Shown here piece by piece: positions 30,001 to 36,000 of a stretch of DNA of 64,000 nt. The stretch spans positions 2,144,001 through 2,208,000 of the forward strand of contig OY759974.1 of assembly GCA_963662945.1 (NCBI GenBank), written 5' to 3'. Position 1 is the first letter of the stretch. Every line of letters begins with the position of its first letter. Source of the DNA: Arcobacteraceae bacterium (GTDB lineage Bacteria > Campylobacterota > Campylobacteria > Campylobacterales > Arcobacteraceae). The position numbers are program-made.

Positions 30001-33000
30001 TATATTTAACTATTTAGTTACTAAAAAATTTTATAAATTTTTTTATTTTACCAACAATAAACTCTATTTCTACCTGTTTCTTTTGCTTGATATAAACCTT
30101 TATCTGCTTTTTCTAAAATCATTTCAAAAGTTTCAAAATCATTTTTTGCACAACTTAGACCAAAAGATGCAGTTACATTTTTTACTTCTGGAAAAGTATG
30201 CATTTCTATAGCTTTTCTTATTTTTTCTGCAATTTTTTGAGCAGTTAGTATATCTGTATTCGTTGTTACTAATACAAATTCTTCTCCTCCCCATCGAGCA
30301 AAAATATCGTATTCTCTAATTTGTTTTTTTACTATAGTAGCTAGTTCTTTAAGAACTTCATCTCCTACACCATGACCATAAGTGTCATTTATATTTTTAA
30401 ACTTATCTATATCTATCATCATCACACACATAGAACTTGTAAAAGGATTGATATCTTTTAGTCTTTCTTCTAAAGCTCTTCGATTGAGTATTTTTGTAAG
30501 AGAATCTATTTCTGCTTTATTTTTTAATGTTATGTTTATTTTTTTTAGTTCTATTTGTTTTTTTTGTAAAATAGTTAAAAGATAATTAAAAAATTTTGCT
30601 ACAAGTCCAACTTCTGTTCCTCTTTCTTCATGTATTTTACTTTGAATATTCCCTGTTTTCATAATCTTTACAATACTTTCAATAGTATCTACCCAAGGAA
30701 GTTTTGCATTATGTTCACTTACATTTAAACCTAATACTTCATGTCTTTTTCGTACTCTTAAAAGACCTATTTTTGCTAAGAAAAGAAAAAAAGCTATACC
30801 AATAAAAAAAGCAAAAACAAAAGCCGTAGAGATACCAAGAGTTTGTACTAAAATATACTCTATACGAGTTTGTCCTTCTTGAAGTGGTGCAAAAATACCA
30901 ACAGCTAATGTTCCCCAGATACCTGCAAATCCATGAACTCCAACAACACTTAAAGGGTCATCTATTTTAAACTTCTTTAAGATAAGTTGGTCAAAAAAGA
31001 ACATAATAAAAGCTGACATTAAACCAACAAAAGCTGAAATATGTGTTGTAAATTGATCACAACCAGCCGTAATACCTACAAGACCTGCAATAAGACCAAA
31101 TGAGAAAATTTCTACACCAACTTTATCTTTATTGATAAGACTTATGAGCCATCCTCCAAGTCCACCAAAGGCAGCTGCAATAGTTGTATTTAAAAGAATT
31201 GTAGTTACGAGTGGGTCAAATTTGAGTAAACTTCCTGCATTAAATCCAAACCAAGCAAAAAAAAGTATAAAAACACCAAACACAATGAAGTTATGATTAC
31301 TTGGGGCAAAATAATTTATACGACCATGTTTAAATTTTCCTAATCTTGGACCTAATATTAATGCCCCAGCTAATCCAATCCAAGCACCAATGGAGTGTAC
31401 AACTGTAGAACCTGCAAAATCTTTAAAACCTAGATTTTGAAGCCATCCATTTTCTCCCCAAGCCCAATGTCCAAAAATAGGGTAAATAAAAGAAGTAACA
31501 ATAATTGCAACTACAATATAAGCATTAAACTTCATTCTTTCAGCAACAGCACCCGATACGATTGTTATGGCAGTTGCTGCAAACATTGCTTGAAAAAAGA
31601 AAAAGCCATTTTCATTTAAGTTTGTTCCCTCAATTGCAAAATTACTAAAACCAATAATTCCACCAATATCAGTACCAAACATCAGTCCAAAACCAATAAG
31701 CCAAAAAAAGATAAGACTAAATACTGTATCAATGAGGTTTTTCATAGCTACATTGATAGTATTTTTTGATCTTACTGTTCCAGTTTCAATAAGTGCAAAA
31801 CCAAGTTGCATCATAAACACCAAAAATGCACAAAGCAGTATCCAAAGTAAATCAATATTTTCCATGAGTATTTTATGTCCTAAAGTTATTTTTTTATTCT
31901 AGCACATAAAATAGTTGAAGAGTTTATAGGGATTATATACTTTTTATACAATATTTATTGTTTTACTATTTCTTGAAGTTTTGAAATATTTAAAAGTGTC
32001 AAAAGTTTATGTCCATGTACATCTTTTGGTGGTTGGACTATACTTTCTCCTATCATACCACCACTTATGAGATGATTTTCAAATGGTTTGATGTATTGTG
32101 TAGGTATTTTCATAATTTCACCTAATCTATCTACAACAACTCCAATAGTGTGTTTTCCATCTGAACCCTCATAATTAACAATAATAATATCATTCTTTTT
32201 GCTCTCTTTGTCATTTTTAATAAAAGAACTTATATCTAATACACTCACAAAATATTCTTTATGTGATATCGTCCCTTTAAAATGATTTTCGATTTCTGTA
32301 CTAATAGGAGTTTCTAGATGTTCTAGCCCTACTGCTTCTATAACTTGCTTTTGTGGTACTCCAACCCATTTTTCACCAATATAAAAAGTTGCTATTTCTT
32401 GTACAGTTTCATTTTGCTCTATAGGATACGTGTAATAATGATTTTCTATCGCTTGTGTTGTTGTTATATTATTATTTGATATATTCCCAGCTTCTATAAA
32501 TACAAGAGCAATAATATCATTTACATAATCATCATTTTCACTTTTGTATTCTCTATATCCATTAGAACAAGAGCTACCTACAATATAATATTTATTTTCA
32601 AATTCTATAATTTGTGAAGTAGATTCACCATGGTGTAGATTGAAAAAAGAATCATTGATATTTAAAATATCACCAATTGTATAATTGCTATTTGAACAAC
32701 TTACTATGGTTTTTGATTTTTTTTCAACAAAGAATGAAAACATTTTATCATCAACCTTTGGGAGAGCATCTTTTAACATATCTTGGAATTGCGGTGTACT
32801 ATCAAATACAATTCCAATACCACCAACACTTTGGTTACTTTCTACACTTGTGATGCTTGCACCATAAATATAACTATGTTTTCCATTATATAGAGGTGTA
32901 GCTTCAAATGGTGAAACTGAATATTTAGATGAGTTTTCCAAATGTAAAGTTTTGTTTATCCAGTCATTTGTTAGTTGTTTTCCAACAAGGTGCGTTTCAT

Positions 33001-36000
33001 TTTCATTAGAAACTGCGAGGATGATTCCATTTTTATCATAGATAAAAAGATTTGTATAGACTGTATAAAGATCGTTAATATATTTTAAGATACTCGATAT
33101 TTGTTCTTTTTGTATATCAGAAATTGATTCATTTTGAGAAAGTATCTCTTTAAATGTACTTGTTAATGCCCACCATCTACAATCATTGGCTCGCTCATAA
33201 AGATTTCTATCCATAATATCAATAGAAAGTGATGATAAAAATACCGCACTATCTAGAAGTGAAAGAATAATAGTTTCATTGAGTTGTTCTATTGAAGTGT
33301 TAAATGATTTTTTTGTATTTTCACCAGTTTGTCTTACTTCCCGTAAAATAGATCGTGCAAAATCTGCTCCACCTAAACTACTATTTTCATCTGTTTGAGA
33401 TACATTACCATTCCAAACTGCACGGTCTAATTCATCTTGAATAGTTGTTGCTTTGATTGGAATTGCTAACATCTCTTTTTTAAAAATATCTTCATTATTC
33501 ATAATTGATTGAAGAATAGGTGCTTCTATTTCTATATTTTTATCATTTTCATGAAAAGCACTACTAAGTGGTATCATAATATGACCAAGCCATCCTAATC
33601 CAAAAAAACCTTCATAACCATTAGTTTTACAAGTTTTAATAAGATAATCACGTCCTGCAAAAGAGGTTATAGCAAATGGTTGTTCTAATTCTATTTGGAG
33701 TTTTGCACCAATTGGTATATGATAAACATCACTTGAAGCAATAGAAACACCATCACTATCTAATAATAAAATAGTTTCTTTATTCTCTTTTGCAACTAAT
33801 CGTGCAAAAACACCTTCCATCTCATTTTCAAATTTAAAACAAAGAGAGAGAAAACCAATAATTTCATCACTCTCATTTGTTTTTGTTACTTTGTATGTAT
33901 ATACTAAAGATTTTTGATGATTTGGTAAAAAGTCATGATATTTAAATGTTTCAACGTATTCATCATTTGTATTGAGTGCTTCATTGATAATAGAATCATT
34001 TGTTTTTGTAAGAGTATTTGAATCATCTAGTTTTGCAACAATATTCCCCTGCGTATCAAATAAGACAATATCGTAATAGACACTATATTTAGCTACATAT
34101 TCTTGAAATCTATTTTTAATAGAAATGAGGTCTTCTTTATAAGTTTTTTTAGCAATTCTGAAATTTGTATCATCTTCATCATCTTTATGTATTTCGATTT
34201 GTTCAATAGTTTTTGGAAGTTTTAGTAAAAATTTTCGTATATCATCATCTGTTGCTAAAAATCCAATATCCGCTGTTCTTTCAAAAAGATTTCTTATTAC
34301 TATGTCAACTGCAACTTGTGCTTTAGACTTCATTTCATTTATGACTTTATTTAACGTTGCATCTGCAAGATGAGATATAAGTTCATTTGTTAAATTATTA
34401 AAATTTGTTTTTGTTTGACTCATATCAATACCAGTAGAACCTAATTGACTCAAGAGAATAAGTTGATCCCAGGTTTTACTTATATCATTGAGTTCTGTTT
34501 TAAATTCTGTAACATTTTGCATATATTTAAGAAGTTCTTGAAACTTATTTGATTTTGAATCCATATCTTAACCTTTGGTTTATCTATATAAGGGAAGATT
34601 ATATCATAGTTGAGTCTTAAATAAGTCTCAAAACATAAATAATATATAATAACTTATATAAAATATATACAATTATATGTTTATTTAGTGTTTTTTATAT
34701 TTTTTTGTTAATCTTGCAAAATCATAAAAATCACTTAGCATTAGATAACGAATTTGTATGTCATCAAACTTTTGCAATAGTGGCGAAAAACCTTCATGAA
34801 AAAGTCTTACATCATTGATAAATTCTTTTGGATATTCTAATTTCTCTTCTTTAAGTTTGCCAAAACAGGTCATAAATTCAAGAAATAATTTATTGACAAG
34901 TTTTTCTTTTTCTGGAGTTTGTTCCTGTAAAAACCCACTAAGTTTTTCAAACTCTACACATATTTTTGTTAAACAATCATTCATTTATAGTTCTTTTTAT
35001 TAATTTCAAAGAGGACATATTCATTTTTTATACCAAGTGATTAATTACAGTGTTGTAATAGAGTTGATATAAGTTTAAGTTAATTTTAATTTAGAAAGTA
35101 ATATTCTTGAGTTATTTTAAAATTTACGGGAAGAAGTTTATGAAATGGCTAATTATTTTTATTATTTGTAGTTCATTATTTGCCAAAGATGTCATACGAT
35201 TTTCTCCTTTACCTATGGAAAGTGCCTCTAAAACCTTAGAGATATTTAAACCATTTATAGAATATTTAGAAAAAAAAAGTGGAAAAAAAGTTAAATTAGT
35301 TTACCGTGCTACAAATCTAGAGATAATAAAAGGACTTAAAAATAAAGAGATAGATTTAGCACATTTTGGTCCATTACCTTATGTTATTTTAACCAAAGAG
35401 TATAAAGATATTGTTCCTATTGCACAATTTCTTGAAAAGAATGGTAAAAATAGCTATACCTGTACTTTATTTAAAAGAAAAGATACAAAAATAGATCTAC
35501 ATAAGATTCAAAATAAAAAATTTGCACTGACACATAAATATTCAACTTGTGGATATGTTTTTGTTGAAGATATGTTGAAAAAATATGATAGTTCTTTAAC
35601 AAATAATGAATTCAAATATTTAGGCTCTCATTATACAGCAATTGCTGATGTTGTTACAGGAGATTATGATATTGGAGGTGTGAAAACATCCATATATGAT
35701 CAATTTAAATATTTAGATGTTGAAGCTATCGGAATAGGAGAGGAAAATCCAAGTTTAATGTTGGTTGCAAATACAGCAACACTTAGTAAAGAAGAGATTA
35801 TTCAATTTCAGACAATCATTACATCTGCTACAAAAAAAGATAAGAAGGATTGGGATGTAAAAATTAATAGTGCAGCAAAAATACCAGACATTCAAGCTTT
35901 ATTACAGTATCAAAAAAGAGTAGAAAATATTGAGATAGAAGATGAAAAATAAAAGATCGTTAATTAGTCTTATTTTAGTTCCTATTACTTTAGTTTCTAT

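Follow-up and report, generated by a model that had tools for sequence, protein, structure and literature searches.

We identified in a 64,000 nt stretch of an Arcobacteraceae genome (contig OY759974.1, positions 2,144,001 to 2,208,000; in the following called the window) a gene, g02157, whose product appears to be a chemoreceptor in disguise, changed beyond what standard searches recognize; its family occurs chiefly among nitrogen fixers of the phylum. On our overall best reading, which we hold to be somewhat better than even, this protein is cytoplasmic, brings its own adaptor and reports nitrogen status to CheA arrays.

The gene was found as the genome-wide survey's note had described it, as a minus-strand ORF encoding 869 amino acids (Table 1), with a paralog, g02460 (C1:2478744-2481332), of 862 amino acids and 49.8% identity over 863 columns. 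The described layout of two units, each a helical hairpin plus an alpha/beta part, followed by CheW, was recovered in an independent model built from 55 sequences (pLDDT 81.0). Pfam assigned CheW with 37.5 bits (cut-off 23.5) and dCache_1 (PF02743) with only 33.6 bits (E 3.8e-8), below the cut-off of 45. As reported earlier for Foldseek, both Foldseek and VIA matched structures of DctB, Tlp3, TlpA and CheW. The second dCache domain (residues 431-694) aligned with DctB 3by9_B (VIA Z 19.2, rmsd 2.8, 226 aligned residues) and unit 1 of a model of a CheW-less relative with 8w7p_B (Z 19.0, rmsd 2.8, 229 aligned); in the models, both units show the dCache architecture of a long helix and two alpha/beta modules. 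By Pfam, model and VIA, hairpins and dCache domains explain the N-terminal 700 residues. The C-terminal domain is a CheW as judged by PF01584 above cut-off and by the modeled fold (2qdl_B: VIA Z 14.8, rmsd 3.2, 137 aligned). No NCBIfam family matched g02157 or its paralog, and an Atlas search with unit 2 returned only unnamed or Cache clusters. The earlier count of 4567 homologs could not be reproduced; we obtained 3770 with E≤0.001 among 8000 candidates scored.

Table 1 Coordinates in the window of g02157, its predicted parts and neighboring elements.
Feature	Position	Strand	Basis
ORF g02157, 869 aa: (tip hairpin + dCache) twice, linker, CheW	31955..34564	-	ORF call, Pfam, structure model
Hairpin 1, residues 16-70, the most degenerate of the hairpins putatively derived from MCP tips	34355..34519	-	Model helices 16-41 and 49-104; stepwise profile alignments; position table
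dCache domain 1 with its stalk helix (residues 71-335), RNLxERxxD at 91-99	33560..34354	-	Pfam dCache_1 70-316; HHalign vs single-unit receptors, Prob 99.8
Linker between units, residues 336-362	33479..33559	-	Structure model
Hairpin 2, residues 363-425, putative degenerate MCP tip	33290..33478	-	Profile alignments, position tables
dCache domain 2 with its stalk helix (residues 426-694), RNLxERxxD at 453-461	32483..33289	-	VIA vs DctB 3by9_B over 431-694
Predicted flexible tether, residues 695-720, unconserved in sequence, length kept	32405..32482	-	Model and alignment
Divergent CheW domain, residues 721-869	31958..32404	-	Pfam CheW; VIA vs 2qdl_B
Ammonium transporter-GGDEF fusion, co-directional, 89 bp past the g02157 stop, not kept in other loci	30048..31865	-	
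Nitrogenase-associated protein-like ORF, 3.2 kb upstream	37813..38244	-	TIGR01616, 102.6 bits (cut-off 109)
Candidate sigma-70-type promoter	34603..34631	-	10/12 matches; region no richer in such sites than shuffles

The sequence analysis shows a soluble protein, in agreement with the note. The hydropathy over 19 residues, taken as the mark of membrane helices that would flank the dCache domains in an extracytoplasmic arrangement, reached 2.0 in none of the 125 CheW-fused members, compared with 23 of the 26 MCPs of the same genome. The peak of g02157 is 1.83 at residue 432; a membrane anchor at 432-450 was considered and rejected, this stretch being part of a soluble helix. The RNLxERxxD motif at positions 91 and 453, previously called invariant, is constant or almost constant in alignments of 44 and of 125 members, but not family-wide, as it is eroded in five of ten loci fetched (L094-L097 and L100). 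Mean conservation in fused members is highest in the stalks (63-65%), followed by the dCache bodies (41-42%), the hairpins (33% and 38%) and the tether (8% mean identity).

A search with unit 2 matched 12 plasmid records, four of them labeled MCP. The seven that were translated are tip-first proteins, with an N-terminal PF00015 domain (above cut-off in six of the seven) and the same dCache motifs. Such soluble receptors of about 345 amino acids, with a canonical MCP tip preceding a dCache of the g02157 subtype, form a large family (7651 of 7999 candidates scored), annotated in the examples WP_008345706.1, WP_318784668.1 and WP_269154015.1 only as methyl-accepting chemotaxis protein. They share with g02157 the hairpin, the RNLxERxxD stalk, the dCache subtype and the lack of membrane segments and methylation helices, but have a single unit, a tip that scores with PF00015 and no CheW, and are presumably homodimers. 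Unit 2 of CheW-less members aligned with them in HHalign with Prob 99.9 over 293 columns, in register through the hairpin. By profile comparison, each g02157 unit is homologous to the tip-first soluble receptors. In a quick tree, three clades (support 99, 98 and 98) separated the sequences of unit 1, of unit 2 and of the single-unit receptors.

About 60% of the two-unit family have CheW, whereas it is missing in 46 of 125 two-unit representatives (about a third), three of which may be cut fragments; a quick tree of unit 2 is compatible with a single gain or several losses. In the published literature we found no paper on tip-first soluble receptors and no description of the two-unit family, although a Cache-CheW listing may exist among architecture lists in supplements; Fig. 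S10 of PMC10653840, for instance, lists 30 unstudied CheW architectures. Two candidates for known tip-first receptors were set aside: Caulobacter McpR has the normal domain order according to PMC10579534, and for Methylobacterium MtpA, of 442 amino acids (PMC10613068), no tie to this family was established.

The note had stated that an MCP signaling domain is lacking. PF00015 indeed scores on neither paralog, while 26 MCPs above cut-off are encoded in the same genome, and among 24 relatives scanned the hairpin of P0151 came closest, with E 0.38. The stepwise comparison nevertheless indicates that the hairpins probably originate from MCP signaling tips. A profile of 43 CheW-less members yielded five matches at E≤10 among 177,635 PDB sequences, the first to a dCache, then to the Thermotoga maritima MCP tips 4jpb_B and 3ur1_C (E 0.017, on hairpin 2). 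In comparisons restricted to the hairpins, MCP tips scored 16.8 against CheW-less hairpin 2, equaled by one of 60 phase-keeping shuffles. CheW-less hairpin 2 in turn matched fused hairpin 2 with Prob 99.5 and CheW-less hairpin 1 with Prob 66.5, and CheW-less hairpin 1 matched fused hairpin 1 with Prob 99.6, each equaled by 0 of 60 shuffles. Direct HHalign of the g02157 hairpins against MCP tips was not significant (Prob 0.2-1.2), hairpin-only HMMs failed to rank the genome's own 26 MCP tips above 2458 decoy ORFs, and an Atlas search with the CheW-less hairpin gave no usable match. In another PDB search an unrelated coiled coil (IncA) ranked above the MCP tips. A tip origin of the g02157 hairpins still appears most likely from these sequence comparisons, the weakest link being the one with E 0.017 and one of 60 shuffles, plus position.

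We compared the hairpins at the CheW-contact positions of Tsr, taken from Table 1 of PMC13098124. CheW-less hairpin 2 (n=46) carries L/I at 380 (87%), N at 381 (100%), I/L at 384 (91%), K/R at 388 (85%) and R/K at 404 (69%). In g02157, R381, W384, N385 and V388 of hairpin 2 correspond to Tsr 377, 380, 381 and 384; in hairpin 1, W32 is invariant and L37-L41 occupy the place of the tip's L-N-A-A-I. Fused members (n=75) have W at Tsr position 380 (93%) and R at 377 (80%); W384, N385, G386 and G414 are kept at 93-99% in fused members, the Trp being absent in only three of 125. The conserved E385 and R388 and the Gly turn of MCP tips have a role in trimers. Both groups have lost E385 and the Gly-rich turn, and fused members also F396 and R388, a basic residue at 388 occurring only in CheW-less members.

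The two hairpins are predicted to pack into one four-helix bundle, and we are fairly confident that each chain forms a pseudo-dimer. The four-helix-bundle structure 9u78_B spans both model hairpins (Z 11.3, rmsd 2.9, 108 of 118 residues, range 19-428), with the caveat that for helical bundles a Z below about 13 may reflect a common arrangement only; VIA gave similar alignments across the hairpins of the CheW-less model (pTM 0.86). The top coupling pairs between hairpins 1 and 2, L37-F402 and T19-S420, follow one shared antiparallel register in a noisy mean-field analysis (272 sequences, 191 effective). No MCP chain was among the listed Foldseek and VIA matches; single-chain libraries hold half a bundle. 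The bundle of two hairpins, dimeric in form, was found only in the models, within one chain.

In the CheW domain, A725, V741, E743, A744, G764, K769 and L814 correspond to E. coli CheW L20, V36, E38, I39, G57, R62 and V105. Among 125 fused CheW domains, L20 is replaced by A (92%) and I39 by A/S (91%), G57 (98%) and E38 (80%) are retained, position 62 is K in 42% and R in only 13%, and the NLRG motif is eroded. For E. coli CheW, PMC3828127 reports that the R62-E38 salt bridge is required for signaling. Judged from the alignments, fused members show changes at two sites, Leu to Trp in the tip and Leu and Ile to Ala in the receptor groove of CheW. When residues 8-698 and 716-869 were submitted to complex prediction, the pair scored 0.50 against 0.00 for the best control, with runs agreeing in at least 96% of contacts and a partner pLDDT of at least 69, but no interface was returned. 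In its benchmark, 116 of 157 solved and two of 215 mismatched pairs reached the mark, like complexes being among the solved ones; only 18 of the 157 solved pairs, but both mismatches, reached it with scores ≤0.60. This hints that CheW may dock on the rest of its own chain. Coupling pairs between hairpins and CheW, from the same mean-field analysis, were inconsistent and defined no single surface.

As an unlikely alternative, in line with the note's reading, the protein could be a sensor of the type of Treponema CheWS, for which PMC10653840 provides the precedent: the hairpin bundle, irrespective of its origin, would by now be a mere scaffold, the dCache pair would act on the fused CheW or straight on CheA, and CheW would sit on ordinary tips in the baseplate. 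The tips of fused members, lacking most of the MCP consensus and conserved no better than the sensor domains, would agree with this, and since the complex prediction gave no interface, a dCache domain is a conceivable docking site for CheW. However, the CheW-less members among the two-unit representatives (46 of 125, including the three possible fragments) imply that the module has a CheW-independent output, the four near-constant residues of hairpin 2 are retained in fused members, the CheW groove no longer has the bulky residues by which a normal tip is held, and the tether is unconserved. We consider signaling into arrays through the tip plus the tethered CheW somewhat favored.

The note had proposed a soluble sensor that feeds arrays by way of CheW and has no receptor tip for this. 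The tie to arrays was supported by co-occurrence: among 301 genomes of the phylum, CheA is present in 45 of 45 carriers and the gene in 0 of 35 CheA-less genomes, three of which have nifH; all five distant genomes also have CheA. The exclusion of a tip is not the best reading, given the probably degenerate tips and the CheW-less members. In five free-living families, the gene occurs in 22 of 29 genomes with nifH and two of 26 without it. In family f2, 20 of 21 carriers lack nifH, and outside the phylum nifH was above cut-off in only 15 of 40 carrier genomes, many of them incomplete and considered without a control set. That the signal is the nitrogen status of the cell is, in our estimate, just short of an even call. 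A link to nitrogen fixation had not been mentioned in the note.

Regarding the surroundings of the gene, the earlier statement that che neighbors are not conserved was upheld, an MCP motif appearing in nine of 90 loci. Family genes are orphans: not che clusters but nif clusters, the position behind a NifA-like gene or the vicinity of amt are where they lie. A Pfam scan of 76 co-directional neighbors of at least 100 amino acids (of 144) revealed no neighbor family recurring across phyla. Two of four NifDKEN pattern matches (L040, L085) lay outside called ORFs and were discarded, and a NifB match in L051 was not borne out by the ORFs scanned. With sigma-28-like and sigma-54-like patterns, upstream sites were found in seven of 74 loci (against 9% of 800 background windows) and three of 74 loci, respectively, none of them at g02157.

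These locations would suit a repurposed receptor, in which the tips bind a non-chemotaxis partner such as a nitrogen regulator or c-di-GMP enzyme and CheW serves as a private cap or localization tag. Strong conservation of the tips within lineages at a distance from the universal MCP consensus would fit as well, and E. coli Tls, which sequesters FlhDC according to PMC12623472, is a precedent. We regard this as less likely still than the CheWS-like sensor: CheA-less genomes do not have the gene even where nifH is present, 98% of the fused CheW domains retain the CheA-facing G57, and among the 76 neighbors scanned none belongs to a family that is found repeatedly across phyla.

Using the glutamate methylation consensus, we found strict matches in three of 122 fused members and two of 121 single-unit receptors, compared with 23 of 26 MCPs of the same genome. 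In one lineage, which lacks nifH, identity amounts to 76-91% in the hairpins but only 20-22% in the dCache bodies, which is how the output end of a receptor behaves. The missing methylation sites, this lineage and the unconserved R62 of CheW could also speak for a ligand-independent array modifier or decoy with structural dCache domains that occupies sites in the baseplate and dampens or remodels signaling when nitrogen genes are on. We judge this quite improbable: in most members conservation is highest in the stalk and dCache motifs, which are common to single-unit receptors with a canonical tip, and the absence of nifH from the drifting lineage would follow from a loss or change of its sensed input.

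For the preferred reading, a self-adaptored receptor, we propose the following scenario. The ancestor would have been a soluble tip-first receptor, with a bare MCP signaling tip preceding dCache. One tandem duplication would have placed both halves of the usual homodimer in one chain, so that dCache domains and stalks come in pairs and the two hairpins build a single four-helix bundle; with symmetry released, the two tips could diverge. CheW on its flexible tether would most likely dock on hairpin 2 via a private, co-adapted surface, while its other face would join the baseplate's CheA-P5/CheW rings. On binding of a ligand in a dCache pocket, the stalk helix, which continues straight into the hairpin, would move and CheA activity would be altered, a control without methylation-based adaptation. 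The input would most likely be the nitrogen status of the cell or else some condition linked with nitrogen fixation. We infer the docking site, array entry, CheA control and ligand. A bolder version seems conceivable though doubtful: natural single-chain asymmetric pseudo-dimers with one hairpin specialized for the adaptor, a widespread class missed by all MCP-domain censuses, would contact the fused CheW through a private, co-evolved bump-and-hole of tip Trp and two groove Ala and would insert into CheA rings, needing neither trimers of dimers nor methylation, diazotrophs being steered by internal nitrogen status.

Receptors are counted by the MCP signaling domain, which is considered nearly invariant. 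If our reading is true, such counts miss a whole input class, thousands of proteins with drifted tips, of which the CheW-less members currently lack any chemotaxis label. The family would also offer a concrete candidate for coupling nitrogen status to movement in motile nitrogen fixers, and a cytoplasmic dCache subtype with a putative ligand. Canonical homodimer, CheW-less pseudo-dimer and CheW-fused pseudo-dimer would form a natural series bearing on the roles of outside and inside tip residues, previously approached with engineered chains. One of these, single-chain Tsr~Tsr, was made to separate inside (trimer) from outside (CheA/CheW) tip roles, and it binds CheW, clusters and signals, as stated in PMC4692393. 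As presented there, Tsr~Tsr is artificial and transmembrane with identical halves, whereas the g02157 family would be natural, asymmetric and soluble with its own adaptor.

Other known systems share single aspects. Treponema denticola CheWS also fuses a sensor domain to CheW and reports an intracellular ligand to the array, but its sensor, as described in PMC10653840, is of the CheR-like, SAM-binding kind and follows CheW in the chain, with no receptor-derived hairpin; g02157 has no CheR-like domain, its N-terminal module resembles a whole receptor pseudo-dimer and, unlike CheWS, it has CheW-less relatives. DosM and other F9 double-signaling-domain receptors likewise carry two MCP signaling hairpins in one soluble chain. 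By its description in PMC9321776, DosM uses two signaling domains as a scaffold, without sensory domains and within F9 gene sets; the g02157 hairpins are short, degenerate and asymmetric without a PF00015 match, each bears a dCache, and the gene is an orphan. Tls, too, is a chemoreceptor-derived protein that departed from the normal design. It represses flagellar genes by sequestering FlhDC, as PMC12623472 relates, whereas the g02157 family gives no sign of such output and is strictly tied to CheA in the genomes searched. The transmembrane chemoreceptors and kinases Tlp3, TlpA, PctA and DctB share the dCache fold (VIA Z 15-20, 7-16% identity), but their dCache is extracytoplasmic and lies N-terminal to the output, while that of g02157 appears cytoplasmic and lies C-terminal to each hairpin.

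The model of the protein studied (98 kDa; 55 sequences; pLDDT 81.0, pTM 0.69) has helices 16-41 and 49-104 followed by an alpha/beta domain, then helices 363-389 and 397-465 with a second such domain, and finally CheW. Structure searches matched CheW at Z 14.8 and dCache sensors at Z values of up to 19. CheW at residues 724-828 scored above its Pfam cut-off, dCache_1 below. The chain contains two units of helical hairpin (H1 and H2), stalk and dCache, then a tether and CheW. The sole other copy in the genome is a paralogue at C1:2478744-2481332 (862 aa, 49.8% identity), and the nearest named relatives belong to the Arcobacteraceae. 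Rhodocyclus tenuis, Parazoarcus communis and Methylobacillus flagellatus are among the carriers of the family. The two-unit family is large, with 3770 hits among 8000 candidates scored. Both motifs were present in 125 of 138 new representatives (50% identity), of which 75 carry CheW (fused; median 867 aa), 46 lack it (CheW-less; median 668 aa) and 4 are unclassified; three of the 46, with a tip of the fused type, may be cut fragments. A 19-residue hydropathy of at least 2.0 occurs in 0 of 125 CheW-fused members versus 23 of the 26 receptors of the host genome, which encodes, besides flagellins, 26 MCP matches above cut-off and one each of CheA, CheW and CheV. In two representatives, P0403 (740 aa) and P0490 (928 aa), three or four stretches were matched or the motif spacing is odd; the module was perhaps duplicated further there.

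The origin of the hairpins was approached from the second unit. Residues 355-600 retrieved 12 plasmid records, four of them labelled MCP. The seven that were translated, all about 310-410 aa long, have an N-terminal MCP tip and a C-terminal dCache of the same subtype, with PF00015 above cut-off in six and the RNLxERxxD stalk motif present. These tip-first receptors have a canonical tip without methylation helices and form a very large family themselves (7651 of 7999 candidates scored); we found no paper on them. Two plasmid matches, H8 and H11, are Pseudoalteromonas proteins labelled PAS domain S-box that have the stalk and the first module of dCache in common with the family; the subtype is hence used with further outputs as well.

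Unit 2 of CheW-less members aligned to the tip-first receptors (Prob 99.9, 293 columns) through the hairpin, placing L-N-G on L-N-A; in the three remaining unit groups the alignment begins only at the stalk. A blind PDB search with a profile of 43 CheW-less members gave five hits among 177,635 sequences, the second and third being T. maritima MCP tips (E 0.017) in the same register. With hairpins alone, a chain of comparisons led from the tips to CheW-less H2 (score 16.8, a value reached by 1 of 60 heptad-phase shuffles) and onward to fused H2 (Prob 99.5), CheW-less H1 (66.5) and fused H1 (99.6), each with 0 of 60 shuffles. Profile comparison gave no direct match between the hairpins of the protein studied and MCP tips, and hairpin HMMs did not raise MCPs above 2458 decoys; a tip origin is thus argued from position, register and stepping stones. 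From these we consider it very probable that both hairpins derive from MCP signalling tips. A quick tree built from 91 units separated unit 1, unit 2 and the single-unit sequences into three clades (support 99, 98 and 98), indicating one old duplication.

Four-helix bundles matched the full model over ranges that span both hairpins: 9u78_B with Z 11.3 and rmsd 2.9 (108 of 118 residues, 19-428) and 9cu8_A with Z 10.6 and rmsd 2.6 (103 of 106, 12-434). The bundle is deduced from the aligned ranges, and a Z of this size speaks for arrangement, not kinship. The model of a CheW-less member (pLDDT 89.9, pTM 0.86) yielded the same kind of bundle matches. In a noisy coupling analysis, the top H1-H2 pairs included L37-F402 and T19-S420, in one antiparallel register, as well as V84-F442 and I88-I450, as in parallel stalks. 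The simplest reading of the models is that one chain now holds both halves of a receptor homodimer.

We compared the tip and CheW at the contact positions of the Tsr/CheW list (Table 1 in the excerpted text of PMC13098124; E. coli numbering). CheW-less H2 keeps 380 L/I, 381 N, 384 I/L, 388 K/R and 404 R/K and has lost E385. Fused H2 has 377 R (80%), 380 W (93%) and 381 N (96%), and two groove residues of the fused CheW have become smaller (L20 to A in 92%, I39 to A/S in 91% of 125), with V36, E38 and G57 retained and R62 not. Gain of a large tip residue together with loss of two large groove residues suggests a private tip-CheW contact. The tether before CheW has 8% identity and a narrow length range. 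Predicting the complex of residues 8-698 with 716-869 gave a score of 0.50 versus 0.00 for the best control, with at least 96% of contacts shared between runs and a partner pLDDT of at least 69; of 157 solved pairs 116 reach the mark, as do 2 of 215 mismatched ones, but 18 of the 157 and both mismatches do so with a score of at most 0.60; complexes like these have already been solved, and the output holds no interface. This lends weak support to a predicted self-docking of CheW on the rest of the chain.

Most likely, and with moderate confidence, we see here a single-chain pseudo-dimeric receptor. A putative ligand in a dCache pocket would shift the stalk helix, which runs on into the hairpin; hairpin 2 would grip the tethered CheW, whose opposite face would enter CheA rings. 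Members without a CheW of their own would rely on the ordinary CheW of the cell or on CheA-P5. Adaptation by methylation would be absent; the methylation consensus occurs in 3 of 122 fused members. We regard it as unlikely that CheW alone carries the signal and the bundle is a scaffold. The genome-wide survey's note had described a soluble dCache-CheW fusion that could signal through CheW instead of a receptor tip. The feature is real and the architecture (ORF, two units, CheW) stands; the sensor without a tip gives way to a receptor whose tips are hidden, with putative array entry and CheA control and a tie to nitrogen that can be tested.

The protein would work like a cytoplasmic chemoreceptor but lacks a PF00015 score, methylation sites and E385, and, judged by its sequence, falls outside formal MCP membership. 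With CheWS it shares the sensor-CheW fusion, but CheWS has no receptor-derived module (excerpted text of PMC10653840). DosM likewise has two hairpins per chain but no sensor (excerpted text of PMC9321776). The word "cache" is absent from the main text, as excerpted, of a survey of CheW architectures, and we found no description of the two-unit family in the literature outside subscription papers. All 26 receptors of the genome (e.g., C1:1559391) share a near-identical tip with Thr at the Tsr R388 position, and the MCP match at C1:1256402-1258138 (-) has a TAA stop within its signalling domain, as in a truncated or broken receptor.

At four loci of one genus without nifH, hairpins are 76-91% identical to those of locus L098, and stalks and dCache bodies 15-29%. 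This conservation pattern indicates that the tips are under selection. CheW-less two-unit proteins of small-genome members of the genome family f2 (L094:6478-8487, L095, L096, L097, L100) combine strongly conserved hairpins with dCache motifs that are eroded, and in the CheW count at genome level no Pfam chemotaxis model matched them; their input may have changed. A ligand-independent modifier of arrays is the least probable of the alternatives we weighed.

Among 301 phylum genomes, the gene occurs in 45 and the CheA dimerisation domain in 266; all 45 carriers have that domain and none of the 35 genomes without it carries the gene, kin not being independent. CheA was also found in all five distant carrier genomes. 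That the tip was repurposed for a partner from outside the chemotaxis core appears doubtful, slightly more so than the scaffold reading. Above cut-off, nifH is present in 32 of the 301. Within five families (55 genomes), the gene occurs in 22 of 29 nifH genomes versus 2 of 26 without nifH; in the three informative families the carriers were 8/8 versus 1/8, 6/10 versus 1/13 and 4/6 versus 0/5. Of the 21 genomes with a CheW-fused member, 19 have nifH, and the three nifH genomes without CheA all lack the gene. In f2, nifH is absent from 20 of 21 carriers, 18 of these weak-scoring, with eroded dCache motifs in the five loci looked at. Outside the phylum, in a sample with no control set, nifH is above cut-off in only 15 of 40 carrier genomes; the gene is accordingly linked more with nitrogen status than with nitrogenase itself.

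The family genes are orphans: an MCP motif was found in 9 of 90 loci, and no neighbour family recurred across phyla among 76 neighbours scanned. At single loci of relatives, the gene was found flanked by nifEN and iscA-nifU-nifS (L059), near nifEN and modBC (L063), 60 bp 3' of a NifA-like gene (L037; 512.5 bits, cut-off 528.85) or near amt (L064). In the window, the adjacent amt-GGDEF fusion is likely an ammonium-sensing diguanylate cyclase. The nitrogenase-associated protein-like ORF lies far from the genome's own nifH (C1:470607).

Coordinates of the gene studied, its neighbours and the tip-first receptors
Feature	Position	Strand	Remarks
Gene studied	window 31955-34564	-	ORF of 869 aa
Ammonium transporter with C-terminal GGDEF	window 30048-31865	-	605 aa; TIGR00836 over cut-off; 89 bp downstream of gene studied
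Nitrogenase-associated protein-like ORF	window 37813-38244	-	TIGR01616 just below cut-off; 3.2 kb upstream of gene studied
Tip-first soluble MCP-dCache receptors	L007:3345-4373, L008:3168-4202, L009:3198-4223, L010, L011, L012, L013		~345 aa

A 355-aa ORF in the window (25157-26224, -) ends in repeated Asp-rich, calcium-binding-like loops. At the locus L099 (3044-6320), an MCP gene directly 5' of a CheW-less two-unit gene is apparently split by an inserted transposase-like ORF.
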